A DNA stretch of 64,000 nt from Eubacteriales bacterium (lineage in GTDB: Bacteria; Bacillota; Clostridia; Oscillospirales; CAG-272), in contig JAZNXW010000023.1 in NCBI GenBank assembly GCA_045594085.1, forward strand, positions 363 to 64,362. The letters are read 5' to 3'. Below, one piece after another: positions 2,849-23,106 of this stretch (position 1 is its first letter; the number at the start of each line of letters is the position of its first letter). A program made the position numbers and the translations under genes. The notes beneath the pieces were generated by a model. It had not been told where the DNA came from, ran no database searches, and was given only the letters and a program-made list of their open reading frames with translations.

Positions 2849-3505
2849 TTACATCATTTTCATCATTTCGATCGCGTCGCCGAGGCTGCTCGCAACAGCT
2901 CGGACAATTTGTTTTGCCTCATCATCGGGCTGCCACAGATCCGGTACCGCGATGACGTCGCATCCTGCCGCGTGTGCGGAAAGAATGCCGTTTTTGCCGT
3001 CCTCAAGCGCGATGGCGTCCGCAGGGGAGACATCGAGGTGTTCGCATGCTTTTAGATAAATGTCGGGTGCGGGCTTCGAGTATGCGACCATATCCCCGGT
3101 AACGATCGCATCGAAGCTGTCGTAGATTCCGACGGAGGTGAGCTGACGCTTCACTGTCTCCGAATAAGTCGAGGATGCGAGTGCGATCTTCACGCCGCGA
3201 GCTTTCAGATACGCGATGATCTCTTTTGCGTACGGCTTGACCGGCACGCCGTGCTTTGCTTCGTAGTCGAGCGTGAACTCGCGTTTTTTCTCCGCAAAGG
3301 CTTGCGGGGAGTATCCGTCACCGAACTCTGCGTAAAGGACAGCGTCCGCCGCCGTCACCGTAAGTCCGAGCACGTCCTTGATCATATATCCCGCCTTACC
3401 GATGCCTGTTGCCTCGCCGGCATAGTCATATGCGAGGGCGGCGAGACGCTCCGTGTCGAGCAAAAGTCCGTCCATATCGAAAATAACAGCCTTCAATTTC
3501 CGCAC
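2849..3505 (-). CDS. HAD-family phosphatase (beta-PGM-like)
   Basis: FDMDGLLLD motif I, ASS, KPAPD, EDG motifs. Confidence 0.9.
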   Translation of the reverse strand: MRKLKAVIFDMDGLLLDTERLAALAYDYAGEATGIGKAGYMIKDVLGLTVTAADAVLYAEFGDGYSPQAFAEKKREFTLDYEAKHGVPVKPYAKEIIAYLKARGVKIALASSTYSETVKRQLTSVGIYDSFDAIVTGDMVAYSKPAPDIYLKACEHLDVSPADAIALEDGKNGILSAHAAGCDVIAVPDLWQPDDEAKQIVRAVASSLGDAIEMMKMM

Positions 3506-3915
3506 TCCGAATAAAGATATTCAACGTTTCCGATTGAAAGGAAAAGTCCTACAGCCGCATAGATCAGCATCAGCATAATGGAAAGGTCGCTTGTGACAAA
3601 GCCCATGGAGCGGTTGAAAAAGTTCGTTATTGTCAAGGTTAGCACCGTGACGGAAAGCACGAGTGAGCCGTGCGGCAACAGCACGGACGAGATCGGATCC
3701 TTTTTGCCGAGACGGTAGCTTGAATCAATATATACAATTGCCGAAGCGACAACGAATACGGCATAAACAAGAAAGATCACGCCCGAATCTGTCGAGTTGA
3801 CGTACATCATCTCAGGCATGGCGGCGTGGGCGAATACAACAAACAAAATAAGGACCGAATAAACGAGCGTCAAGTGCGCGATCAGATTTTTGAGCATTTT
3901 TACTGCTAATTTCAT
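3493..3915 (-). CDS. Four-TM membrane protein, unknown function
   Basis: Four hydrophobic segments; overlaps both neighbours. Confidence 0.7.
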   Translation of the reverse strand: MKLAVKMLKNLIAHLTLVYSVLILFVVFAHAAMPEMMYVNSTDSGVIFLVYAVFVVASAIVYIDSSYRLGKKDPISSVLLPHGSLVLSVTVLTLTITNFFNRSMGFVTSDLSIMLMLIYAAVGLFLSIGNVEYLYSECGN

Positions 3916-4925
3916 TCGGATACCTCTCCGATAACGATGATATCATAGATCTTTCTTGGCTCATCGTCGGGTGTGGTCGCTCTTTCGTAATCCTGGCGAA
4001 GGATCTCGCCATCGTAATAGGCGAACGCCGAATCGCCTCCGTCCAAGTTATACGCAAGTCTAACACCGAGCTTTTCGTATATGTCCGCGAAGTCGTGCAT
4101 ACGGATTCCCTTGGAATAAACCATTTCGCCCTTATATTCAATATCAAGTCTGCCGTCAGCGACGATGAAAACGTAATGGCCGGGCTCGTAGTAGCCGATC
4201 GAGGAGCGCGGATTGCGCGAGGTTATGTCGCTGTAATGCTGGAAATCATTTTCTCCGTAAGCTTTTCCGGAAGGGTCAAGCAGCGACGGGCCGAAGTCCC
4301 ATACCTGATAAACGTCCTTGTCGTCAAAATAGTTGGCGGAATACGTATAAGGAGACACGATTTCCATCGTTCCGTCGCCGTAAAGGACGCAAATATCGTT
4401 TTCGAGGCGGTTATCGGACGTGAGCACAGTTCCGTTGCGAATCGCCACGGATGCGGAGTTGCCCCAGAAGTCACCGCTGATTGCCGCGATGGGATCTGCA
4501 GCGGCTACGAGATCCGTAAACGGCACGCGCTCCGTGCTTGCAACCGTAAACAGGTTCTCGAGATTGCGAACGTAAACGTCATACACTATGTATCTTGCAA
4601 CGTAATCGTCGATCGGCTCGATGATTTCCGTTACTGTCAGATTGATGTCATGGCTGCGGTAGTAGCCGTCTCCGGACTCAACCTCGCCCTCGGCAAGAAA
4701 AACGTCCGGAAGAGTTGCGGCAAAATCGCCCTTTGAGGAATTGCCTGCATTTTCGTTGTCCTCGTCGGTACCGTTATGCGATCCGCCGATGATAACTCCG
4801 CCGCCCTCATCATTGTCCGTCATTTTTTTGACGTGATGGAAATAACAAAAAGACAAAAGCACGATGACAGCAGCGAGCGTATCGCATATCACAGATGTAA
4901 TTATATAGCGTTTTTTTGGATTCAA
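3912..4925 (-). CDS. Membrane-anchored phosphodiester glycosidase (NAGPA) family protein
   Basis: N-terminal TM; NPRSSIG, VADGR, AYNLDGGDS motifs; TTG start with GAAAGGA. Confidence 0.8.
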   Translation of the reverse strand: MNPKKRYIITSVICDTLAAVIVLLSFCYFHHVKKMTDNDEGGGVIIGGSHNGTDEDNENAGNSSKGDFAATLPDVFLAEGEVESGDGYYRSHDINLTVTEIIEPIDDYVARYIVYDVYVRNLENLFTVASTERVPFTDLVAAADPIAAISGDFWGNSASVAIRNGTVLTSDNRLENDICVLYGDGTMEIVSPYTYSANYFDDKDVYQVWDFGPSLLDPSGKAYGENDFQHYSDITSRNPRSSIGYYEPGHYVFIVADGRLDIEYKGEMVYSKGIRMHDFADIYEKLGVRLAYNLDGGDSAFAYYDGEILRQDYERATTPDDEPRKIYDIIVIGEVSE

Positions 4926-5040
4926 GCTTGTTTTTTTCCTTTCGGTGAATGAAATTTCAGCTTATCGTTTTCATTTTATCACGCATCGCGAGCGGATTCA
5001 AGAAATCCACGAAAAATTTAACATTTTTCGCTTGCCGAAA

Positions 5041-5069
5041 TTGAAGAAATCGGAATGTTATGATAAAAT
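5041..5069 (+). promoter_or_regulatory. Sigma-A promoter with extended -10
   Basis: TTGAAG-17-TAAAAT, TG at 5061-5062. Confidence 0.5.
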
Positions 5070-5142
5070 TTTTGCAGTAGGTGAGTGGATCGCGCTTTTT
5101 TGACGAATAAATGGTGTAAGCTTACAAAAACGGAGGTGTGCG

Positions 5143-5715
5143 ATGACAAACGCAAATGACCGCGGTGCAGAGCTTTATAGGGCGTATCTCGACGGAGATT
5201 CGGAAGCCTTTGAGACTCTCGTCGGACTTTACCGCGAAAACGTCATCTTTTTCTGTCTGCGCTATCTTTCCGTCTTTGAGGACGCGGAGGATGCCGCAGC
5301 AGAGGCATTTGCCGCGCTCATAATCAATCCGACAAGATATGATTTTAAAACTGCCTTTAAGACGTATCTTTTCTCGATCGCAAAGAAAAAAGCCGTCGAT
5401 ATTTATCGGAAACGCGCACGCCTCGCAAGTGTCGATGCTGTGACCGATTCCGAGTGGGCGGAAACGATCGAAGCGTCCGTGCTTGCAGAGGAAGAAAAGC
5501 GAGAGCTTCACAGAGCGCTTGCGTCGCTTCCCGCTGATTACGGAACAGTCCTCCATCTTGTCTATTTTGAGGAGCTGTCCTGCGCCGAGGCCGCGTCTGT
5601 TATGGGCAAAACGAAAAAGCAAACGGAGAATCTTCTGTACCGCGCGAAAAAGACTTTGCGCACAAGGCTGGAGGACGGCTCCGCACCGAAAGGAAACAGA
5701 TATGAGATCAAATAA
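5143..5715 (+). CDS. ECF-family RNA polymerase sigma factor
   Basis: GGAGG SD; region 2 DAEDAAAEAF..FKTYLFSIA; region 4 LS.AEAA.VMG..LLYRAKKTLR. Confidence 0.93.
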   Translation: MTNANDRGAELYRAYLDGDSEAFETLVGLYRENVIFFCLRYLSVFEDAEDAAAEAFAALIINPTRYDFKTAFKTYLFSIAKKKAVDIYRKRARLASVDAVTDSEWAETIEASVLAEEEKRELHRALASLPADYGTVLHLVYFEELSCAEAASVMGKTKKQTENLLYRAKKTLRTRLEDGSAPKGNRYEIK

Positions 5716-7150
5716 AGAATTTCTCCTTACCGTATACGAAAAAGCAGAAAAAGGTAAGGCAAAGCGCGCGTCACGCAGGTACGCACTGACTGCGGTAACG
5801 TCTCTTTTGCTCGCAGTATGCATGCTCGCCGTAACTGCCGTTTACTTCAAAAACGAGCTGACACCCGACGCCGACACTCCCGTAATCAACGGAGTCGATA
5901 ATCCAACGCTCGGAACCGAAAAGCCGACTGCGGGCATCGTTCCACCCGAAATTTACGATGACTCGCTCAAAATCGACGGCGTCGAGGTTTCGTCAGGCTC
6001 CATCACGCAGAATCTGCTTGATGGATTGCAGTCCGAGAACGTAAAGGTCTCGTATGCACTCGAGCACCTCTTTGACGGATCTTCCGATTTCGCCTTTGAT
6101 ATGCTCGCAAAGACATACGAGGGCGAAAACGTTTTCATCTCACCTTATTCCATTATCGCCGCGCTCGCAATGACAGCCAACGGCGCAGACGGTGAGACGC
6201 GAGCAGAGATCGAATCTGCCGTAGGTCTCACCGTAGACGAAATGAACGAGCTTATTATGTCGTACAATCACCGATGCGAATATCTTAATTCCGCCAATTC
6301 GTTTTGGATGAGAAACGGCAGCTTTACCGTAAAGCCGGACTTTCTTATCAACCTTGACGCGTATTATGACGCAGGCGTGTTCGCCGCTCCGTTTGATGAC
6401 GGAACGCTCGATGACATTAACAAATGGGTGTCCGACAATACGGACGGAATGATCCCCGAAGCACTGACCGAAATCCCGGAGGACGTTGTCGCATATATCA
6501 TCAACACCTTGCTGTTCGCAGGCAAGTGGGAGGATCCGTACTATGAGAGCAAAAACACAACTATGACGTTCATCTCCTCCGACGGCACTGAAGCCGAGGG
6601 CGAATTTATGCACGGAGAGTCAGCCTTGCTCGAGCTTGATTATGCAACGGGCATCTGCAAGGATTATTCATGCGAGCTTTCTTTTGTGGCTCTTTTGCCG
6701 AACGAAGGCTGTACGATCGAGGATGTGATCTCCTCGCTCGACTCCGACAGTATCGCAGAAGCAATGAAAAACGGAAGGAAAACGCGACACTCTCGCTGTG
6801 CCGCCGAATCTTTGCCGAAATTCAAATCCGAGACCTCGCTTGAATTGAGCGATGCACTTAAGGAAACGGGAATTATATCCGCGTTTGATTTGCGCGCAGA
6901 TTTTTCGCGCATCACCGACTCGATTGAACTTTTTGTGTCGCAGGTCATCCATAAAACGGCATTTGAAATAGATGAAGAGGGATCACGTGCCGCCGCGGCG
7001 ACGATTGTTGAGCTTACAGAGGAATCCGAGGAAGAGTTTATTCACGAGCCTGAGAAGGTACCGGTGATCTTCGACCGTCCGTTCGTTTATATGATCGTCA
7101 ATTCCTATGGCTTCCCCATCTTCATCGGAGTTTGCGATTCGATCAAGTAA
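5702..7150 (+). CDS. Membrane-anchored serpin with anti-sigma-like N-terminus
   Basis: ATG 5702 overlaps sigma gene end; basic N-tail then TM; FISPYSI, INKWV, LPKFK, hinge EEGSRAAAAT, FDRPF. Confidence 0.88.
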   Translation: MRSNKEFLLTVYEKAEKGKAKRASRRYALTAVTSLLLAVCMLAVTAVYFKNELTPDADTPVINGVDNPTLGTEKPTAGIVPPEIYDDSLKIDGVEVSSGSITQNLLDGLQSENVKVSYALEHLFDGSSDFAFDMLAKTYEGENVFISPYSIIAALAMTANGADGETRAEIESAVGLTVDEMNELIMSYNHRCEYLNSANSFWMRNGSFTVKPDFLINLDAYYDAGVFAAPFDDGTLDDINKWVSDNTDGMIPEALTEIPEDVVAYIINTLLFAGKWEDPYYESKNTTMTFISSDGTEAEGEFMHGESALLELDYATGICKDYSCELSFVALLPNEGCTIEDVISSLDSDSIAEAMKNGRKTRHSRCAAESLPKFKSETSLELSDALKETGIISAFDLRADFSRITDSIELFVSQVIHKTAFEIDEEGSRAAAATIVELTEESEEEFIHEPEKVPVIFDRPFVYMIVNSYGFPIFIGVCDSIK

Positions 7151-7172
7151 AAGTAAATTTTCCGTTTTAGGG

Positions 7173-7201
7173 TTTACAAATCAGCCGTGATTGTATATAA
7201 T
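7173..7201 (+). promoter_or_regulatory. Sigma-A promoter of cys operon
   Basis: TTTACA-17-TATAAT. Confidence 0.75.
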
Positions 7202-7225
7202 GTATTGTAAGTTAATATGATCACG

Positions 7226-7443
7226 ACTATGACCGGAAAGAAAACGGAAAAAGCCGATTTACAGAGACCGTCCTGCCGCTGAAACGGACGGAATCGAGCT
7301 CCGAATGTGCATCCGCGAGTCTTGACGCGCGAAATAACAGTAGTGCGCCGCGTCACCGCACGTTACGCGGACAAAAGCAACAAATCGGAGTGGAACCGCG
7401 GTAATATCGCCTCCCGTGTATATCACGGGAGGCTTATTTTTTT
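7226..7443 (+). ncRNA. T-box riboswitch (Cys)
   Basis: AGAGA and GCTGAAA stem-I motifs; GAA-TG-TGC-A specifier (TGC 7308-7310); T-box AAATCGGAGTGGAACCGCG 7382-7400; terminator GCCTCCCGTG/CACGGGAGGC plus T-run. Confidence 0.9.
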
Positions 7444-7460
7444 GAAAGGAATCCGTTACA

Positions 7461-8177
7461 TTGAGTAAGATTCAGATAACAATAGAAGCTGTCCTCGCGC
7501 ACGACATCGGTCTTGCGCTCCTTAAGATGAATGAAAAAGCCGAAAAAATCGGTGATGAGATCAAAAACGACATAAAATCCGTTCGTGAACGCGATCCTGC
7601 GGCAAAAAGCGATCTTGAAGCGCTCCTGCTTTATCCCGGTGTACACGCGATCTGGGCGCATCGAATCTCGCATAAGCTCTATGAAAAAAAGCGTTACACG
7701 TCGGCACGTGCCGTCAGTCAGGCGGCGAAATTCCTGACAGGCATCGAGATCCATCCCGGTGCGAAGATCGGTCATGGACTTTTCATCGACCACGGCGCCG
7801 CCGTTGTCATAGGCGAAACTGCCGAGATCGGTGACAACTGCACGATCTATCAGGGAGTCACCCTCGGCGGTACGGGCAAGGAAACGGGCAAGCGTCATCC
7901 CACTCTCGGAGACGGAGTTATGGTCGGCGCGGGTGCAAAGGTGCTCGGCGGTTTTAAGATCGGATCCGGATCTAAGATCGCGGCGAATGCGGTCGTACTT
8001 TCGCCCATTCCCGAAAACTGCACCGCAGTCGGCATTCCCGCACGTCCCGTCCGTATGAACGGACAGCGCATCGATAAGCTTGACCAGGTCCACATTCCGG
8101 ACCCGATCGCGCAGGAGCTCTGTGCGATCAAAAAACGCCTTTCCGAGCTTGAGGAACGGAAGGCGGATCAAGAGTAA
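7461..8177 (+). CDS. cysE: Serine O-acetyltransferase
   Basis: RDPAA, YPGVHA, TGIEIHPGA, GGTGK..GKRHPT, hexapeptide repeats. Confidence 0.95.
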   Translation: MSKIQITIEAVLAHDIGLALLKMNEKAEKIGDEIKNDIKSVRERDPAAKSDLEALLLYPGVHAIWAHRISHKLYEKKRYTSARAVSQAAKFLTGIEIHPGAKIGHGLFIDHGAAVVIGETAEIGDNCTIYQGVTLGGTGKETGKRHPTLGDGVMVGAGAKVLGGFKIGSGSKIAANAVVLSPIPENCTAVGIPARPVRMNGQRIDKLDQVHIPDPIAQELCAIKKRLSELEERKADQE

Positions 8178-8199
8178 ATCAACGAAAGGAACGTAAAAT

Positions 8200-9381
8200 A
8201 TGATCTGTAAACGATGTTTCAGACTGTCTGACGACGATATGAGCTTTTGCCCGTACTGCGGAAAAGCCTTCGCTGATGACGTTGAAGATGCACCGAATGA
8301 AAAAACGAACGCAGAAGACACCGAGGCTCCCGAAACGGAAGCTCACGGTGGAGCGCCGGAAGAAAAGGAGCCCATCAATCTTTGGAACGACGGTCCGACC
8401 TCATATTATTATCGGTCAGAGCAGACATACGCTCAACCGGAGCGCGAGCAGTCACCGATCGGTAAGCTTTTTTCCTCGATGCTTCACGCGATATGCTATT
8501 TCATTTTGTTCTTAGTGATCCAAAGCGTCGTAGCAACGGGATTTCAGCTCGTGGCAGCATTCGCCGCATCGGCGGAATATACAAACAATTATTTCGAGGA
8601 ACACGGCATTAACATCGAAGCTCTCTCGGACGAAGAATACCTCGAGATAATCGAAACGATCACGATCGAATCCGAATCCGTGATGATGGACGCGATGCTC
8701 GCCGTTGACACGAACATGATAAGCGCCGTTGCGTCTGTTGTGGTCGTTCTTGCGCTTTTGGTGCTTGCCAAATATAAGCGCCGCAAGTTCAGCGATCATA
8801 CGTCGCTTTACTTCGCTCCGCTGAAAAATCCGCGCGCATGGGCGGCGATCCCCGCGGGAATTGCTATGCACAGCATCGTGCTTTTCATCATAAGCATAAT
8901 CCCGTTCCCCGAAAGTGTCATTGAAAGCTACAATGAGCTTTATGCCTTCATAGGCGAAAGTCCGCTCTGGCTCGAGATCATTGCCGTAGTCGTGCTCGCG
9001 CCGATAGTCGAGGAGCTCGTCTTCCGCGGATGCATACATTCGCGTCTGCGCCGCTCGATGAAGCCGCTGACGGCGGCTCTCATCTCCGCATTCATTTTCG
9101 GTGTGGCACACGGACATATCATTTCCGTCGTCTACGCATTCACGCTCGGTCTTGTGCTCACGTATCTTTACGAAAGATACAATTCCGTCGTGATCCCGAT
9201 GATATTCCACGCGGCATTCAACGGCGCAAACTACCTGCCCATTATTACAGAGAATACCACCTTCGGTGAGGTGTTCATCATCGTCGCTGTGAGCTCCGCG
9301 ATCTTTGCGATCTGCGCCGTCATCATCGCAAGCGGTCCCGCACAAAAAGAAACAGATAACGAAAACGACAAAGGAATCTGA
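8200..9381 (+). CDS. CPBP/Abi (CAAX-like) intramembrane protease with N-terminal zinc ribbon
   Basis: CxxC..FCPYCG; EELVFRG, FGVAH, HAAFN motifs; several TMs. Confidence 0.88.
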   Translation: MICKRCFRLSDDDMSFCPYCGKAFADDVEDAPNEKTNAEDTEAPETEAHGGAPEEKEPINLWNDGPTSYYYRSEQTYAQPEREQSPIGKLFSSMLHAICYFILFLVIQSVVATGFQLVAAFAASAEYTNNYFEEHGINIEALSDEEYLEIIETITIESESVMMDAMLAVDTNMISAVASVVVVLALLVLAKYKRRKFSDHTSLYFAPLKNPRAWAAIPAGIAMHSIVLFIISIIPFPESVIESYNELYAFIGESPLWLEIIAVVVLAPIVEELVFRGCIHSRLRRSMKPLTAALISAFIFGVAHGHIISVVYAFTLGLVLTYLYERYNSVVIPMIFHAAFNGANYLPIITENTTFGEVFIIVAVSSAIFAICAVIIASGPAQKETDNENDKGI

Positions 9382-9385
9382 CAAT

Positions 9386-10807
9386 ATGCTTTATCTTTAC
9401 AATTCCACATCACATGAAAAAGAACAGTTCATCCCGCACACCCCCGGTAAAGTCAGCCTCTATACCTGCGGCCCGACAGTATATCATTACGCTCATATAG
9501 GCAATCTCCGCTCTTACATTATGGAGGATATCCTCGATAAGTATCTGCGCTACTCCGGCTACGACGTAAAGCGCGTGATGAATATCACCGACGTCGGTCA
9601 CCTTACGAGCGATGCCGATGAAGGCGAGGACAAGATGCTCAAGGGCGCAAAGCGCGAGAAGAAGACTGTCCTTGAGATAGCGAAATTCTACACGGACGCG
9701 TTCCGTGCGGACTGCAAAAAGCTCAACATCCGTTGGCCCGACGTGACCGAGCCTGCGACAAAATGTATCGGCGACTATATCAAGATGATAAAGAAGCTCA
9801 TCGCTGACGGATACGCGTACGAATCGGGCGGAAACGTCTATTTTGATACTTCCAAGCTTGAGGAATACTACGTTTTCAATAAGCAAAATGAGGAGGATCT
9901 TGCCGTAGGCGTTCGTGAGGGCGTTGAAGAGGACAAATCCAAGCGCAACAAGTGTGACTTTGCACTTTGGTTCACAAAGAGCAAATTTGACGATCAGGAG
10001 CTCAAATGGAACAGTCCTTGGGGACTCGGCTATCCCGGATGGCACATCGAATGCTCCGCGATCTCCATCAAGCATCTCGGCGAGCATCTCGATATCCATT
10101 GCGGCGGTATCGATAATGCATTCCCGCATCACACAAACGAGATTGCGCAGTCCGAGGCTTACCTCGGACACAAGTGGTGCAACTATTGGTTCCACGTGCT
10201 TCATCTCAACACGACGAGCGGCAAGATGAGCAAGTCCTCGGGCGAGTTCCTCACCGTATCTCTGCTTGAAGAAAAGGGATACCTCCCCGTGGCATATCGT
10301 TTCTTCTGTCTGCAGTCGCATTACCGTAAGTCCCTCGTCTTCTCCTGGGAAGGACTTGACAACGCGCAGGGCGCGTACAATAAGCTTATTGAGAAGATCG
10401 CCACCCTCAAGGAAGGCAGCGATGTCGACCCCGATGCATTTGAGCAGTATAAGGCCCGCTTCGTCGAGGCTCTCGATAATGACATCAACACATCACTCGC
10501 GGTCACAGCAGTCTATGACGTCCTGAAGGCTCCCGTAAGTGACGCGACAAAGCTCGCATTGCTCTCCGATTTTGACCGAGTTCTCTCGCTCGATCTGATC
10601 GCAAATGCAAAGGCACAGCGCGAGCGCGATGAGCTTGCACGTCAGAGCGAAAACGGAGATCCCGAGATCCTTGCCGCAATCGCAGTACGTGCGAAGGCAA
10701 AGGCTAACAAGGATTACGCAGAGGCTGACCGCATCCGCGCAGAGCTTGCCGCAAAGGGCATTACTCTCATCGACACGCCCAACGGTACAACGTATAAAAT
10801 CGGTTAA
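9386..10807 (+). CDS. cysS: Cysteine--tRNA ligase
   Basis: CGPTVY, HIGN, PGWHIEC, FPHHTNE, KMSKS; ATG at 9386. Confidence 0.97.
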
Positions 10808-10812
10808 TATCA

Positions 10813-12006
10813 ATGAAAAAAGCAAAGAAACAGGGCAAAAAAGCCTTTCCAAAGCCGCCTGCGCTTATCTATTATCCCGCGATCTTCTTCGTCAGGATAT
10901 ATTTCCGCCTTCGTTACGGCGTAACCGTAGACAAATCAGCCGTCGGCAAGATCGCAGAGCCGTCGCTGATCCTGTCCAATCATCTTTCGGATCGCGACCA
11001 TTACCTGACCGCACTCGCTTTGACGCCGATACGTCCTACGTTTGTATTGTCAGCGCATTTTATGATGAATCGTACTCTGCGTCCCATACTGAAGGCGATG
11101 CACGTCATTACAAAGCGTATGTTTGACTCGGATGCGGGCTCTGTACTTAACATCATGCGCGCGATCCGCGCGGGCAATTCCGTCGTGCTGTTTCCCGAGG
11201 GGAGACTGACCTGGTACGCGCATTCGATGCGCATAACGGAGGGCACCGCCGACCTCATCAAGAAGCTGAAGGTCAACGTCTACCGCATCGTTCCCGCAGG
11301 CGCGGCGCTTACGTTCCCGAAATGGGCAAAGGCGCCCCGACGCGGAAAGATCAAGGTCACCGTCGAGCCGCTTTTTACCGCCGACGAGATCCCGGCTCTC
11401 ACAAAGGACGAGATCTTCCTCCGTATGGCAGACGCATTCCGTCATGACGACGAAGAAGCGTGCCGCGGCATCCGTTATAAGTCATCCGATACAGCCCTCG
11501 GACTTGACGGGATCCTGTTCAAATGTCCCGTCTGCGGCGGCGAGTTCACGCTTGCGACGAAGGACGGTCATATCAAATGTACCTGCGGACTTGACGCGAC
11601 GCTCAGCGAGTATTACGTTATCGAAAACGGTCCGTTTGATTCGATCAACAAGTGGTATGAATGGCAGTACGCGGATCTTGACGTTACGGCTCCGCTTGAA
11701 AGTGATGCCTCCGTCGGTACCACAGATGAGGACGGCATTATGATCCGCGGCGCCGGCTTCGGAAGATGCCGCGTTGACCGCGACGCATTCACATTTGACG
11801 GCGAGGTTTTCGGTGAGCACGTCTCGTTCTCCGTTCCCACCGCAGATATTGCCGCAGTACCGATCACGGTCTCTGACAGATTCGATATCTATCACGGCGG
11901 CAGACTCTACAATTTCACAATTTCTCCCGATCCGCGCCACACCGTCAAGTGGGCAGTCTATTTCGACCGCTTGACAGACGATCGCATCGGCACGAAAGGA
12001 AAATGA
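10813..12006 (+). CDS. Lysophospholipid acyltransferase (PlsC-like) with C-terminal extension
   Basis: NHLSDRD (HX4D), FPEG; C-terminal CPVC..CTC. Confidence 0.85.
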   Translation: MKKAKKQGKKAFPKPPALIYYPAIFFVRIYFRLRYGVTVDKSAVGKIAEPSLILSNHLSDRDHYLTALALTPIRPTFVLSAHFMMNRTLRPILKAMHVITKRMFDSDAGSVLNIMRAIRAGNSVVLFPEGRLTWYAHSMRITEGTADLIKKLKVNVYRIVPAGAALTFPKWAKAPRRGKIKVTVEPLFTADEIPALTKDEIFLRMADAFRHDDEEACRGIRYKSSDTALGLDGILFKCPVCGGEFTLATKDGHIKCTCGLDATLSEYYVIENGPFDSINKWYEWQYADLDVTAPLESDASVGTTDEDGIMIRGAGFGRCRVDRDAFTFDGEVFGEHVSFSVPTADIAAVPITVSDRFDIYHGGRLYNFTISPDPRHTVKWAVYFDRLTDDRIGTKGK

Positions 12007-12013
12007 TAACACA

Positions 12014-12041
12014 AAAAACCACCGCAACGCGGTGGTTTTTT
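12014..12041. repeat. Terminator hairpin, copy 1 of a 28-bp direct repeat
   Basis: AAAAACCACCGCAACGCGGTGGTTTTTT, identical to 13345-13372. Confidence 0.95.
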
Positions 12042-12045
12042 TGCG

Positions 12046-12546
12046 TTATTCTGTAATCTTGAAGGTTTTTGTTACCTTGGTATCATCAAAACTGAGCCAT
12101 TCGGTTACTTCAACTTCAATATCGGTTGTCGTATCATTAAGTTCATATGCGACCTCTACTTCAAGGGAGGCTCCCTTTTTTATTTCTTTTGTCTGATTGT
12201 CAGAGGAATAATCAGCGCTGTCGTCAAGAATATAAGATTCGTTGAGCCCCACACCGTTTTGATATACGGTTTCATCAAATGCTGTGTAGAAAGCTGTAGA
12301 TTCATCGCTCGATACGTTAGTGAAAATGTATTTAACGATAACCACATCTTTGCCCTCAAAGTCCTTGGCGAGTCGGCAACTGTCAATAACAACGGAATAG
12401 TCACCGATGTTAGCATTGTCTTCTTTTTTTGTTTCGACAGATCCCGTACCCTGATCCGAAGAAGAATCTGATTCCCCGCTGCCCATTGCAAACAGCGCAA
12501 ATGATGCGATTAAAAGAATCGCTAAGATAATGTTGAGTTTTTTCAT
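12046..12546 (-). CDS. Secreted/anchored DUF5067-like beta-sandwich protein
   Basis: Signal peptide; KDFEGKDVVIVKY, YQNGVGL, KEIKKGASLEVEVAYEL. Confidence 0.7.
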   Translation of the reverse strand: MKKLNIILAILLIASFALFAMGSGESDSSSDQGTGSVETKKEDNANIGDYSVVIDSCRLAKDFEGKDVVIVKYIFTNVSSDESTAFYTAFDETVYQNGVGLNESYILDDSADYSSDNQTKEIKKGASLEVEVAYELNDTTTDIEVEVTEWLSFDDTKVTKTFKITE

Positions 12547-12980
12547 TTGTTACTCCTTAAAATGTATTTGTTTATCATTACGGCAATTGCACATGCCGCC
12601 AGATACATAATGATATCGCAAACATCTCCTGTACCGTCGACAACATTCACTTTTTGCGAAAATTCCCAAAAAGTTCCGCATAAAAATGAAATAATTCCAG
12701 ATAGCAGTTCTTTTTTAGGGAAAATTGCAGAAAGTCCGCAACAAAGACTGAATGCCCATAAAAAATCCGAAAAATAAAATTTCGTAAAATTGTTTTCTAG
12801 AAATGACATACGAACGCGTATGAAATCAACATTTACAAACCGTTCGATAAAATCGGACACATAAGTGTTTTCTCTAAAAAGAACATAGAACATCCCACCG
12901 ACAAAAAGAGAGGTGGTGCACAGACACAGTTTTGTTATGGCGATACGACTTTTTAGATATGTTCTATCTTCGGTACGCAT
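12543..12980 (-). CDS. Small membrane protein (VanZ/DUF2809-like)
   Basis: About four TMs; DFLWAF, WEFSQ, GTGDxxDI; 4-bp overlap with downstream gene. Confidence 0.6.
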   Translation of the reverse strand: MRTEDRTYLKSRIAITKLCLCTTSLFVGGMFYVLFRENTYVSDFIERFVNVDFIRVRMSFLENNFTKFYFSDFLWAFSLCCGLSAIFPKKELLSGIISFLCGTFWEFSQKVNVVDGTGDVCDIIMYLAACAIAVMINKYILRSNK

Positions 12981-13014
12981 AATTTCTAATCAAAAAGCGA
13001 TAATATTTTCAGTT

Positions 13015-13081
13015 TGCTGATCTTTAACACAATTATAGCGCTGTTTGATGTTAAAGTCAAGAAAAATGTTGAACTTTAACA
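13015..13081. promoter_or_regulatory. Minus-strand sigma-A promoter overlapped by three 15-bp operator-like sites
   Basis: TTGACT-17-TATAAT (13060 to 13032); sites 13015-13029, 13049-13063 (inverted), 13067-13081 share CTTTAACA. Confidence 0.7.
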
Positions 13082-13099
13082 CAACAAGCGAGGCGAATT

Positions 13100-13339
13100 A
13101 TGAAAATATACGACTACAACGGCAGAAAAAATATGTGTGGAGACAGGATCAGGCTCGAGCGATTGAAATTAAAAATGTCGCAAAGCGATCTTGCGGCACG
13201 TCTGCAGGTCAAGGGTATTATTATTGAACGCGACAGCATAAGCCGCATCGAATCGGGTACGCGTTTCATCGCGGATTACGAGCTCAAAGCCTTCGCGGAG
13301 ATATTTTCGGTTGATATAAACGAGCTTTTTAATATTTGA
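13100..13339 (+). CDS. XRE-family HTH regulator
   Basis: SQSDLAARLQ..ISRIESGTR. Confidence 0.9.
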   Translation: MKIYDYNGRKNMCGDRIRLERLKLKMSQSDLAARLQVKGIIIERDSISRIESGTRFIADYELKAFAEIFSVDINELFNI

Positions 13340-13344
13340 GCGCG

Positions 13345-13372
13345 AAAAACCACCGCAACGCGGTGGTTTTTT
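13345..13372. repeat. Terminator hairpin, copy 2 of the 28-bp direct repeat
   Basis: Identical to 12014-12041, same orientation (AAC loop). Confidence 0.95.
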
Positions 13373-13377
13373 ACCGT

Positions 13378-14466
13378 TTATATCTTTCTTCCCGTGAGCT
13401 CGGTTGCTTCGAGCTGACAGCGGACGCACAGCTCTGCGGCGAGCAGAGCGTGCTCCTGCGTCATTGCCGTTTCGGTGCGGTCGATGCAGTCGCGGATGAG
13501 CTTTCCGAAATAGGGGAATCCGGTTTTTCGTGTAGCGTCTACGTAATGCTCGCCGGATTTGTTTGCCCAGAGGACGTGATTTCCGCCGCGCGATTTGGAC
13601 AGATCAATGTACTTGCGGAGCTCGATGTATCCGTCCGTGCCGAGGATGAAGGTGCGTCCGTCGCCCCACGTGCCGAGTCCGTCGGGAGTAAACCAATCGA
13701 CTCGGAAATAGCAGGATGCGCCCGTGTCCGCGACGAGATTTGCATCACCGAAATCGTCGAGCTCGGGATATTCGGGATGGTGGTAGTTGCCGATCTTGGC
13801 GTTCACGATCTTGGCGGATTTTGCGCCGGTGAAGTGAAGGAATTGCTCGATCTGATGGCTTCCGATGTCGCAAAGGATGCCGCCGTAGTTTTTTTTGATA
13901 AAGAACCAATCGGGACGTCCTGCGGCACCGAGTCTGTGCGGTCCCATACCGATGACTTGGATGACCTTGCCGATCTCGCCTGCTTCAATGAGATTTCCTG
14001 CATAGATGGCGGCCTCGTTTTGCAGTCGTTCGCTGTAGCAGACCGCGTATTTTCTGCCCGTCTCTGCGACGGTACGGCGCACGTCTGCGAGCTGATCGAG
14101 CGTTGTCAGCGGAGCTTTGTCAACGAAATAGTCCTTGCCCGCTTTCATGACGCGTATACCGAGCGCGGCGCGCTCGCTTGTCACGCAAGCGGATGCGACG
14201 AGCTTGACCTCGGGATCGGAGAGGACTTCGTCCTCGGAGCGAGCCGCTTTTGCCTGAGGATATCGCTTGAGGAATGCGGTAAGCTTGACGGGATCGGGAT
14301 CGTACGCCCATTTGAGCGTAGCGCCTGCGTCGATGAGGCTTCCCGTCATACCGTAGATGTGACCGTGATCCATACCGATTGCGGCGATGACGAACTCGCC
14401 CGGCTTAACGACAGGCTCGGGCAGCCCTTCGGGGATGTAATTCATACCGTCCATATTGTTAGCCAT
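13378..14466 (-). CDS. Gfo/Idh/MocA oxidoreductase
   Basis: IGMDHGH, FVDKAP, GGILCDIGSHQ. Confidence 0.88.
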   Translation of the reverse strand: MANNMDGMNYIPEGLPEPVVKPGEFVIAAIGMDHGHIYGMTGSLIDAGATLKWAYDPDPVKLTAFLKRYPQAKAARSEDEVLSDPEVKLVASACVTSERAALGIRVMKAGKDYFVDKAPLTTLDQLADVRRTVAETGRKYAVCYSERLQNEAAIYAGNLIEAGEIGKVIQVIGMGPHRLGAAGRPDWFFIKKNYGGILCDIGSHQIEQFLHFTGAKSAKIVNAKIGNYHHPEYPELDDFGDANLVADTGASCYFRVDWFTPDGLGTWGDGRTFILGTDGYIELRKYIDLSKSRGGNHVLWANKSGEHYVDATRKTGFPYFGKLIRDCIDRTETAMTQEHALLAAELCVRCQLEATELTGRKI

Positions 14467-20031: not shown

Positions 20032-20541
20032 ATGAAAAGATCGGATTTTCTTCAGTGCGGAGAGATCATAAATACACACGGCGTACGAGGAGTCGTAAAG
20101 GCACGCTCCGATTGTGACGCGCCCGAAATACTTGCCTCGCTCGAATGCGTTTACACAGATGCGGACGGCAAAAACAGACTCGACATCATCACCGCGTCGA
20201 TACAGAAGGGGTTTGTTCTTCTGACGCTGGACGGAGTGAATGATATTGACGCCGCTATCGCGCTCAAGGGAACCGTCATATATGCCGCGCGCGAGGAGCT
20301 TCTTGAATTTATGGAGGAAGGGGACAGATTTATTGCCGATCTTATCGGTCTTCCCATCATCCACGCGGATACAAAGGAAACGCTCGGTACGCTTCGCGAC
20401 GTTATCAACCGCGGTGCATCCGATATATACGTCATCGACACCGATGGCGGCGAGCGAATGATGCCTGCCGTTGCCGAGTTCGTCACAGAAATGACGGACG
20501 ACGCGATCTTTGTCCGTCCGATCCCGGGAATGCTTGACTGA
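20032..20541 (+). CDS. rimM: Ribosome maturation factor RimM
   Basis: GEIINTHGVRG, DLIGL, ASDIYV; precedes trmD. Confidence 0.93.
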   Translation: MKRSDFLQCGEIINTHGVRGVVKARSDCDAPEILASLECVYTDADGKNRLDIITASIQKGFVLLTLDGVNDIDAAIALKGTVIYAAREELLEFMEEGDRFIADLIGLPIIHADTKETLGTLRDVINRGASDIYVIDTDGGERMMPAVAEFVTEMTDDAIFVRPIPGMLD

Positions 20542-21249: not shown

Positions 21250-23106
21250 GTGAGCGAAAAGAAAATATCAAAACTGAATAAAAGGTCGATGGGTGTTTTC
21301 GAGTATGTTTTTACCTCATACGAAAAGCTGGCGGAGAGGTGGAAAAAGAGCGCGGTGTCGCGCTTCTCTTACCGCGCATCCGCGTCAAGAGCCGTTGCAT
21401 CCGTGAGAAAGCGCATCGCGCGCTCCTCCGAAAAGAGTATGCTTCTTGGCGTCGTGAGACGCTTTGTGTCCGCGCTTCCGTCCGTTACGCTTCGCGCATA
21501 CGGAACGTTCATCTTCTCTCTCGGATTTTATTCAGCGCTCGTCTGCGTCATAAAGGCGATCGCGTCCACACTTGAAACGGATACGGATTCGCTCGTTTAC
21601 GGCGGCGTGCTTATGCTCGCCGCGATCCCGCTTTTGCTGTCGGGAAAAACGCTTGCGGATGCAGTGATTGAAAGCAGAGTCGGAGCTCTTATTGCGTTTG
21701 ACCTGCTTGGCTACAGACCTGAAGCTGCAGTCGCGTGCAAAACCGTTATCAAACGCTGTGACATTTCGATGATCGCTGGAATGGCGTTCGGACTTTGCTC
21801 GTTTTACGTTGATATTTCGTCTATAGTTGCGGGCATTCTCGGAGTGGTGGCGATTTACTTCATACTGACCGTGCCGGAGGGCGGAGTTGCCGCGTTTATC
21901 GCGCTTGCTCCGATAATGCCGATGCATATGGCTAAAATATACATCGCCCTCCTTTTCCTCGGTTACGTTTATAAGCTTGCAACGGGCAGACGCACGTTCA
22001 AGCTTGATCTTGCCGATTCGGCTATGCTTGTGTTTGCATTTTTGATCGTTCTCGGAGATCTCATCCACTACGGAAACGGAGCAGATATCGGCACGGGATC
22101 GCATTTTGCGCTCATCGCTGTTTATTTCCTCATTGTCAATCTCGTGAGAAATGACAAATGGCGAGAAACGTGCAGATTTGCCGTTGCCTTCGGCGGAGTT
22201 CTTACGGCGGTACTTTTCATCGCGTCTTGTTATCTGCCCGAACGTGTCGCGTCGCTTACGTTTGCGTCAGGCACTCTTGAAGGCATAAAAAACACGTTTC
22301 TGACTCTGATGGAGACCGCGGATGCCGCGGTGCTCTATACATCGGCTGTCCTGCCGATGCTTCTTGTGTCCGTGACGGGACGTTACGGCGGAAAACGCGC
22401 GGGCGGAGCTGCCCTTTGCGCAGCATTGACTCTTACGGCTGTGATCGTGAGCGGATCCCGAAGCCTTTGGCTTGGTGCCGCTGTCGGTTTTTCCGTCCTG
22501 CTTGTGTTTGTGAACAAAAAAATTATAATTATTCCCGCGTCGGTTGCGGCTTTGGTGCCGTTATCTATATTGATCCTTCCCGACAGATTCGACGTATACG
22601 TCAAGCGTCTGTTTGATTTTTCGGGAGAGGGAGCTGTTGCAAACGTAAACGTGCGTGAGGATTCGATCCGTATACTGCTCGATAATGTGATCGGCGGAAT
22701 CGGATCCGCTGACGGAGTCTTTTCCTCATTCTATGCCGCGTACACCAACTCGGGCGTGTACCCTGACAGTGCGAAGAATCTTTTCCTCGGTGTGGGAGTT
22801 GCACTCGGTGTGACAGGACTTGCTGTCTTTGTAATTGCGCTTGCTCTGCTGCTGGTAAAGATGTACACGTACGCAAAAACTAGCTCCGACAGCTCCGCGG
22901 TATCTATCCTTGCAGGCGTCGTTTCGCTTGTTTTTATCGGTGTAACAGTTGATATTTTTGCGGATCCGAAGATGTTTTTGCTGTTCTTTACGTATGCGGC
23001 GTTTGTTTCGTCGTATACGGCTGTCAGACCGACGCCGAAGCAGATGCTTGACAAGATGCCGTCAAACAGCGAAAAGGCCGCTGCTAAGGACATCGAATTC
23101 GAGTGA
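21250..23106 (+). CDS. Polytopic O-antigen ligase-like membrane protein
   Basis: Many TMs; SGSRSLW, GGIG loop, degenerate H-N motif (AKNLFL). Confidence 0.65.
   Translation: MSEKKISKLNKRSMGVFEYVFTSYEKLAERWKKSAVSRFSYRASASRAVASVRKRIARSSEKSMLLGVVRRFVSALPSVTLRAYGTFIFSLGFYSALVCVIKAIASTLETDTDSLVYGGVLMLAAIPLLLSGKTLADAVIESRVGALIAFDLLGYRPEAAVACKTVIKRCDISMIAGMAFGLCSFYVDISSIVAGILGVVAIYFILTVPEGGVAAFIALAPIMPMHMAKIYIALLFLGYVYKLATGRRTFKLDLADSAMLVFAFLIVLGDLIHYGNGADIGTGSHFALIAVYFLIVNLVRNDKWRETCRFAVAFGGVLTAVLFIASCYLPERVASLTFASGTLEGIKNTFLTLMETADAAVLYTSAVLPMLLVSVTGRYGGKRAGGAALCAALTLTAVIVSGSRSLWLGAAVGFSVLLVFVNKKIIIIPASVAALVPLSILILPDRFDVYVKRLFDFSGEGAVANVNVREDSIRILLDNVIGGIGSADGVFSSFYAAYTNSGVYPDSAKNLFLGVGVALGVTGLAVFVIALALLLVKMYTYAKTSSDSSAVSILAGVVSLVFIGVTVDIFADPKMFLLFFTYAAFVSSYTAVRPTPKQMLDKMPSNSEKAAAKDIEFE

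Follow-up and report, generated by a model that had tools for sequence, protein, structure and literature searches.

A foreign three-gene module between two identical copies of a native terminator in a clostridial genome of the CAG-272 lineage

This analysis concerns a short segment, positions 12014 to 13372, of a 64,000-nt stretch of contig JAZNXW010000023.1 from an Eubacteriales bacterium (assembly GCA_045594085.1; 2,006,604 bp in 29 contigs, 96.7% complete). We call the whole 64,000-nt stretch the window, and positions are window coordinates; where other sequences must be told apart, C with a number marks a contig of this genome, G a related genome, L a locus from another genome and X1 a sequencing run. 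The segment is bounded by two exact copies of a 28-mer, AAAAACCACCGCAACGCGGTGGTTTTTT, both on the + strand and spaced 1331 bp apart as a direct repeat. Between them lie two cargo genes on the - strand and a divergent helix-turn-helix (HTH) regulator gene on the + strand. The features of the locus are as follows.

10813..12006, + strand: acyltransferase gene (PF01553), native left flank, 67-73% nucleotide identity to genus relatives
12014..12041, no strand: left copy of the predicted bidirectional terminator, 7 nt past the acyltransferase stop and 4 nt from the DUF5067 stop
12046..12546, - strand: DUF5067 protein of 166 amino acids (aa); N-terminus hydrophobic and signal-like, Cys lipobox absent (PF16729, E 4e-27; phrog_806, E 6e-11)
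12543..12980, - strand: small membrane protein of 145 aa, weakly DUF2809/VanZ-like (PF10990, E 1e-5, below the curated cut-off)
12981..13099, no strand: divergent control region of 119 bp, with a promoter and repeated motifs
13100..13339, + strand: XRE/Cro-C1-type HTH regulator of 79 aa (PF01381, E 8e-7)
13345..13372, no strand: right copy of the predicted bidirectional terminator, 5 nt past the HTH stop and 5 nt from the oxidoreductase stop
13378..14466, - strand: GFO/IDH/MocA oxidoreductase gene (PF22725 and PF01408), native right flank, 65-84% nucleotide identity to genus relatives

The G+C (GC) content is 0.33-0.42 between the copies, against 0.54-0.60 in the flanks and about 55% for the chromosome. 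The flanking acyltransferase (+) and oxidoreductase (-) genes are convergent, all four genes that abut a copy of the repeat end 4-7 nt from that copy, and the insert has hardly any non-coding ends, its outer stops lying 4 and 5 nt from the repeats. Within the insert, the stop of the membrane-protein gene overlaps the start of the DUF5067 gene. Pfam domains of integrases or transposases were found neither in 19 open reading frames (ORFs) from window 1-27 kb nor in the three cassette and two flanking ORFs; PADLOC returned only generic HTH matches and an NCBIfam search gave no match over its cut-off. The original prediction for this DNA had described an exact duplication in one orientation, enclosing AT-rich DNA with two cargo genes and a divergent HTH and lacking an integrase or transposase, and on all of these points it describes the locus correctly.

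The repeat is exact and unique to this site. None of 100 shuffles of the window matched the 28-mer by chance, and the whole assembly holds only the two exact copies in the window, the next-nearest site (on contig C8) differing at three positions. The 28-mer is thus not a dispersed repeat of this genome; dispersal would have spoken against the original prediction. If two mismatches are allowed, the repeat reaches 34 nt (32/34 identical). Each copy consists of a 7-bp GC-rich stem and a 3-nt loop between a run of five to six A and a run of six to seven T, and folding of the copies on both strands gave -17 to -22 kcal/mol (z -3.3 to -4.7). Both have the attributes of a bidirectional intrinsic (Rho-independent) terminator and are predicted, from fold and placement, to be one. 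They share the orientation of the loop (AAC) and are therefore direct, not inverted, repeats. Rfam at a permissive threshold returned four terminator-like matches only, all sub-threshold.

A scan of metagenome contigs for the exact 28-mer gave a single match (L029, 3001-3028), where it ends the efp gene of an unrelated Bacteroidota-like contig with lpxA and SusC/SusD-like genes. This match is a chance convergence and carries no strain information, and it shows that exact terminator identity can come about by convergence across phyla.

Because of its low GC content, the lack of a credible DUF5067 homologue in the 18 other genomes of the genus and the 44 related loci in other Clostridia, we regard the cargo as foreign. 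The one marginal hit to DUF5067 in those 18 genomes (E 3.3e-4) falls in a 645-aa frame; in the family, 5 of 120 other genomes have DUF5067, and at the DNA level the membrane-protein and DUF5067 genes are unmatched in 40 relatives. In a large protein collection DUF5067 has 965 homologues, the best foreign one 83% identical, and those with a named source are labelled Lachnospiraceae or Ruminococcaceae bacteria. The 44 related loci, from a genome collection, are in ruminant-gut Clostridia and are 46-80% identical. The segment is thus supported as foreign cargo without a mobility gene, as originally proposed, and the relatives do not carry the cassette; its presence in all of them would have told against that proposal.

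The arrangement of the three genes appears to define a module: a small Cro/C1-type HTH gene divergent from a membrane-protein gene, which is followed by the DUF5067 gene. A homologue of the membrane protein lies upstream of DUF5067 in 32 of the 44 loci by tblastn (in one of them 1.5 kb away), and a word-indexed search gave two foreign homologues only. Small divergent HTH ORFs stand upstream in many DUF5067 loci, and all six that were tested are HTH_26 or HTH_3. HTH homologues of 51-67% identity occur in 3/18 genus genomes; an 83% HTH homologue and the 83% DUF5067 homologue are each on a 139,464-bp contig, presumably one and the same. The GC content of the module is below that of its flanks in 26 of 28 full-length loci, and its 54 nearest large neighbours elsewhere are varied housekeeping genes with no integrase or transposase among them. 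Cassette DNA matched no plasmid; its phage matches were two unannotated faecal 'Bacteriophage sp.' records, in the HTH region only, at 70-72% identity, and a scan of viral contigs for DUF5067 confirmed none. We read the cassette as a sporadically distributed three-gene module that this species has acquired.

The control region carries a promoter on the - strand (13060-13032, TTGACT-17-TATAAT, 11/12 match) directed at the membrane-protein gene, as well as repeats of the motifs CTTTAACACAA / TGTTAAAG. Four other genomes, of which two lie outside the genus, have HTH homologues preceded by the same motifs without change, and because of this invariance the HTH gene, together with operator and promoter, has the look of a portable repressor-operator switch. 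The HTH protein probably represses its own promoter and the divergent promoter through the conserved repeats. In the HTH gene and the ~90 bp upstream of it (window 13015-13084; L022, L023, L024, L028), the motifs ATCTTTAACACAA, TAAAGTCAAG and CTTTA are invariant in five genomes, and in those genomes the switch faces differing surface-related genes, for example that of a 1014-aa surface protein in G036.

The membrane protein matches VanZ at E 6e-3, under the curated cut-off, and falls in unnamed clusters of the ESM Atlas, where VanZ at 0.81 is a lead only. We infer that it forms, with the DUF5067 protein, a pair with an envelope-associated accessory function. A cell-surface role against phage or envelope stress is possible, because the DUF5067 protein matches the phage protein family phrog_806, whose function is not known. 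In the literature we found only incidental mentions of DUF5067.

Orthologues of both flanking genes are present in all 18 genus genomes and are never neighbours; in the four relatives with both on one contig they lie 6-11 kb apart (4/4). The original prediction looked to relatives for an empty site with one hairpin; none is found, and the comparison has no valid comparator because the flanking genes are not adjacent in any relative. Compared with each of the five relatives that were looked at closely (G011, G014, G017, G013 and G001), about 9 kb of the window (2925-12004) is inverted, and both breakpoints fall in intergenic regions with convergent terminators, the right junction alone being confirmed by independent contigs. 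In the relatives, the 3' end of the oxidoreductase gene faces the HAD-hydrolase gene (window 2849-3505) over a variable slot that is empty but for one terminator in G001 and G013, and contains a 928-930-aa putative lipoprotein in G014 and G017 and an ABC transporter with a two-component system (5.3 kb) in G011. Their acyltransferase gene ends at its own terminator and adjoins other genes. The left copy matches the acyltransferase terminators of G014, G017 and G011 in its A-run flank and at the ends of its stem, and we take it to be the native acyltransferase terminator. The right copy stands where every relative has a different oxidoreductase terminator. At orthologous places in the 18 genus genomes the hairpin was not found at up to three mismatches, and only unrelated look-alikes came up.

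The inverted block runs from the HAD hydrolase to the acyltransferase and includes cysS and a serpin gene, whose 555-aa product (5483-7150) has a complete serpin domain (PF00079, E 1e-75); the genome that carries it is gut Clostridia-like. The slot 3' of the oxidoreductase is a hotspot of gain and loss in the genus (L017 2258-7672, L018 2130-5200, L019 7174-10255, L020 8593-8634, L021 6798-6923).

Parts of the stretch are contained in 13 sequencing runs, and we compared the Logan contigs of four of them, from two studies. All four contain cassette sequence. In X1 a 2290-bp contig covers 12041-14330, across the right copy and into the oxidoreductase gene, two short contigs bridge the left junction (11997-12070), and contig depth is equal (~9.6) in flanks and cassette. 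The left copy is variable in X1, with one form short of a T and another carrying two substitutions. Joints that skip 12042-13372 or run backward, the marks of a deletion or of the circle that the original prediction envisaged, were absent from the contigs of the four runs, and contigs drop rare forms. For this reason the contigs show the cassette to be fixed in the sampled strains and do not speak to an absence of excision.

The duplicated hairpin does not travel with the module. The original prediction suggested looking for duplicated terminators beside homologues of the HTH gene; among the 44 related DUF5067 loci, no hairpin repeat brackets the module. Straddling pairs of 14-mers occur in L035, L046, L051 and L067; those in L035, L051 and L067 are, in context, chance matches and not hairpins, and that in L046 is an AT-rich 14-mer, not viewed in context. 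Eighteen module loci were inspected by eye; four of them have a hairpin at either end, and in each the two are different. Hairpin duplication is thus not a property of the module and is partly a property of this genome.

A scan of the genome found 325 perfect-stem terminator-hairpin sites, with 41 identical direct and 33 identical inverted pairs among them. Five of the 298 consecutive pairs are identical and direct, two of these within short tandem arrays. At a separation of at least 300 bp, three identical direct consecutive pairs were observed against 0.23 expected (Poisson P about 0.002) and no inverted ones, the chance that a given neighbouring pair is identical being about 8e-4. The window pair is one of the three, and the other two surround native genes. 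On C5, a 33-bp direct terminator repeat (20058-20090 / 21886-21918) surrounds a sigma-factor operon that G011 and G008 also have 3' of a GH43 gene, there between two different terminators; identities to these relatives are 92% for GH43, 69-74% for the sigma factor and 37-48% for the other two proteins. On C4, a 26-bp direct terminator repeat (161886-161911 / 162792-162817) surrounds a membrane-protein gene downstream of typA. G011, G013 and G014 have this gene too, with 46-57% identity that drops with species distance, and typA has its own, different terminator together with a promoter in G013 and G014 and none in G011. Because the orthologues of these native genes have differing terminators in the relatives, it appears that on two occasions in this lineage a copy of the neighbouring terminator has taken the place of a terminator, no gene being inserted. 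Terminator identity alone is accordingly no mark of a mobile unit, since the C5 and C4 pairs flank native, ancestral genes, and the use of hairpins as attachment sites by a recurrent element, as in the original prediction, is not supported.

Several further observations concern the hairpins of this genome. The upstream copy on C4 is followed by a perfect TTGACA-17-TATAAT promoter. Identical hairpins also form dispersed families, GCACCCGAAAGGGTGC at seven sites, GCACCGCAGAAATGCGGTGC at seven and others at three to five, and other species of the genus have GCACCCGAAAGGGTGC too, in several places and 100% identical. Such families may reflect either convergence on an optimal hairpin or a REP-like (repetitive extragenic palindromic) spreading element. 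Identical pairs on C4 at distances of 3.2, 7.5 and 8.9 kb were left uncounted, as they belong to a multi-copy hairpin family that is 100% identical in other species and enclose native genes. Short tandem arrays with a period of 110-216 bp and terminator-like hairpins in their units lie at C11 5668-5945, C4 48268-48640 and C25 64357-64620, and further ones at C5 8950-9250, C17 63839-64105 and C10 8724-9075.

On one point all readings of the locus concur: the module is foreign and self-contained, and a copy of a native terminator stands at either end of it. What is shown is the repeat, the cargo's foreign origin, the tight spacing between genes and terminators, and the fixation of the cassette in the sampled strains. 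The best reading, which we hold tentatively and at somewhat less than even confidence, is a one-off insertion at the terminator in which the target was duplicated ("insertion with long target duplication"). We propose that a self-contained three-gene envelope module was acquired horizontally and inserted once in the lineage of this species, at the bidirectional terminator that ends the acyltransferase gene and at the junction made by the ~9-kb inversion. The insertion would have duplicated its target (28 bp exact, 32/34 with flank), and each copy would then terminate one native gene and one cassette gene, leaving the insert transcriptionally insulated. The direct repeats would permit scarless loss through ordinary recombination, and recombination between the copies would leave one terminator between the convergent flanking genes, a point on which the original prediction is supported. 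That the duplication arose at insertion is how we interpret the repeat, and self-movement of the cassette is not among the things shown here.

Insertion with long target duplication was reportedly described by Nobusato et al. in 2000. Furuta, Abe and Kobayashi (2010; PMC2853133) count nine such insertions among 158 restriction-modification (R-M) indels, with repeats of 46 bp to about 420 bp, including examples of 46 bp that overlap the 3' ends of genes, and with no mobile-element genes; they use an operational repeat threshold of >30 bp, prove their cases by empty sites in sister strains, and give the mechanism as unknown while proposing a life cycle of insertion, amplification and release. 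The present locus resembles theirs in its foreign genes of deviant GC, in the lack of an integrase, a transposase or inverted repeats, and in direct repeats made of native gene-3'-end sequence. It differs in that the cargo is a regulator with envelope proteins and the repeat is exactly a terminator, a word absent from the main text of PMC2853133.

In favour of a target-duplicating insertion are the precise bounds of the foreign DNA, a repeat that is exact and found nowhere else in the genome, and an insert that is absent from the relatives and carries no mobility gene. Several points weigh on the other side. The acyltransferase-oxidoreductase junction is found only in this species, so that there is no empty site for comparison, and the single-terminator precursor is hypothetical and requires an earlier inversion. 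The left copy does align with the acyltransferase terminators of relatives, but the flanking genes are nowhere adjacent and the four conspecific runs all have the cassette. With 28 bp exact (34 bp at 32/34), the repeat is just below the >30-bp threshold of Furuta et al. (PMC2853133), and the cargo is not a restriction system. The two identical neighbouring pairs around native genes indicate that identity can arise in this genome without insertion, and the right copy is exactly at the position of the oxidoreductase's own terminator in relatives, which in-place replacement fits equally well.

These last points lead to a close rival, itself doubtful, in which identity came later: the cassette would have been caught between two different terminators at the inversion junction, one of which was subsequently overwritten by a copy of the other. 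Short-patch copying, by template switching in a replication fork or by unequal exchange and later collapse, could have brought this about, with the A and T runs as microhomology. The excess of identical direct neighbours (3/298 against 0.23 expected, none inverted) speaks for such homogenisation, as do the native units on C5 and C4, whose terminators differ in relatives, and the fact that both window copies occupy terminator positions of the relatives. On the other hand, a mechanism for copying 26-33 bp is not established, and a scan of ~250 kb of relatives' loci and 307 kb of other loci, of low power, found no identical neighbouring pair. Its rate, roughly 1% per neighbouring pair, is also below the roughly 6% of R-M indels with long target duplications (PMC2853133). 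Coincidence between two terminators, or an artefact of assembly, we find scarcely credible. Terminator sequence space is small, as the identical 28-mer at the efp gene illustrates, and identical hairpins recur at unrelated loci of this genome; yet the per-pair probability is about 8e-4, the identity extends into the A and T runs, and both junctions appear again in independent contigs assembled by a different pipeline. We reject an inverted duplication arising from a staggered-break inversion, as the copies are direct and the other end of the inversion (window ~2797-2828) has a different hairpin. The idea of a dif/Xer-type site was set aside, as the 28-mer does not seem to resemble dif.

Quite unlikely, in our view, is the form of the hypothesis closest to the original prediction, in which the hairpin is an attachment or linker site and a 1331-bp circle with one hairpin integrates at a matching hairpin, through a recombinase acting in trans or through host recombination on ~28 bp of identity. 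The parallel is with the promoter-early stem-loop (PeSL) cassettes of T4-type phages, reportedly treated by Comeau et al. in 2014. Arbiol et al. (2010; PMC2839356) document that stem-loops combining promoter and terminator, which flank ORFans of these phages, recombine and form mini-circles in an insulated shuffling of genes, and they state that such plasticity is not known in cellular organisms. The circle supposed here would be a complete and compact unit, with the HTH and DUF5067 genes converging on one terminator; the module stands elsewhere in many unrelated housekeeping contexts, low in GC and without mobility genes beside it; and identical terminator families are dispersed in the genome, one hairpin at seven sites. 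Both systems comprise small self-expressed genes bounded by terminator stem-loops, with insulated insertion and deletion and no dedicated recombinase identified. The PeSL is, however, a many-copy motif of promoter plus stem-loop in hyperplastic regions of phages, whereas here a native chromosomal terminator has two copies in the genome and none at orthologous sites in 18 relatives, with no shared promoter beside the copies and, unlike in PeSLs, no circle in the contigs of the four runs. With two copies there is no other landing site, and a donor would need a hairpin identical to a species-specific native terminator. The absence of bracketing duplications at all 44 homologous loci, with two differing hairpins at 4 of the 18 inspected, also tells against a recurrent non-autonomous element. 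No match to the Y1 transposase, serine recombinase, IS110, rve or reverse transcriptase families came up in the assembly, and its only three tyrosine recombinases (PF00589) are on C3, C27 and C19. Metagenome assemblies often lose insertion sequences, and these absences are therefore weak evidence.

We consider it very improbable that the locus is a relic of a larger integrative element, similar to a cis-mobilizable element (CIME), with the 28-bp repeats as attL/attR cores left after loss of the integrase and other genes. Direct repeats around low-GC accessory DNA without an integrase would suit such a relic, as would the DUF5067 match to phrog_806. Against it, the unit has neither gaps nor debris of pseudogenes, its outer stops lying 4-5 nt from the repeats; other genomes have the same three-gene arrangement by itself; and the viral contigs and plasmids searched hold no close relative.

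Other known systems share parts of this layout. The attC sites of integrons are imperfect palindromes of 57-141 bp with GTTRRRY / RYYYAAC core sites and extrahelical bases, recombined by IntI beside attI. Integron cassettes are similarly bounded by hairpin-forming direct repeats, and a circular cassette form is conceivable here too; unlike them, the present unit brings a promoter and a regulator of its own and is bounded by a perfect hairpin of 17 nt flanked by A and T runs. Past the left copy, the nearest GTT reads GTTATTC, outside GTTRRRY, and a PF00589 match, as expected of IntI beside attI and the promoter Pc, is absent from the window's contig. The palindrome-associated transposable elements (PATEs) of IS200/IS605 and the REP elements with their REP-associated tyrosine transposases (RAYTs) need a Y1 HUH transposase, usually have many copies, and lack terminal inverted repeats and a short target duplication. 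Similar same-orientation hairpins at both ends are a likeness, but the assembly gave no PF01797 hit and has two copies of the hairpin. The minimal mobile elements of Neisseria are gene units slotted between conserved genes without mobility genes. These and the morons of phages resemble the cassette as own-promoter units between conserved genes, and differ in not being defined by a duplicated flanking terminator. Morons are transcribed independently, from a promoter to a terminator of their own, and lie between conserved genes (PMC2839356). A preprint (10.1101/2024.07.17.603904) reports fast terminator turnover between E. coli and Salmonella, and the part of it drawn on here does not treat duplication. 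Our literature search for terminator-duplication cassettes found no description of this layout in bacterial chromosomes.

With neither an empty site nor a circle, this one locus adds an example and does not settle the mechanism. If terminators are copied between neighbouring sites, as the two native loci suggest, their turnover involves more than point mutation, and identical flanking hairpins are no safe marker of mobile elements. An unlikely though wider hypothesis is that terminators in this lineage act as copy-and-paste or linker sequences, made identical in direct orientation around single transcription units (three loci) and then used as portable, insulated joints for the capture and loss of cassettes. 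If that were true, chromosomes would have a counterpart of PeSL shuffling, which is known from T4-type phages alone, and the window's cassette would be a unit captured in this way. Much of the accessory genome consists of small islands that lack mobility genes, and their route of entry is poorly understood. Insertion exactly at a duplicated bidirectional terminator would insulate such an island on both sides and permit its scarless loss, which would explain how insertions of this kind are tolerated.

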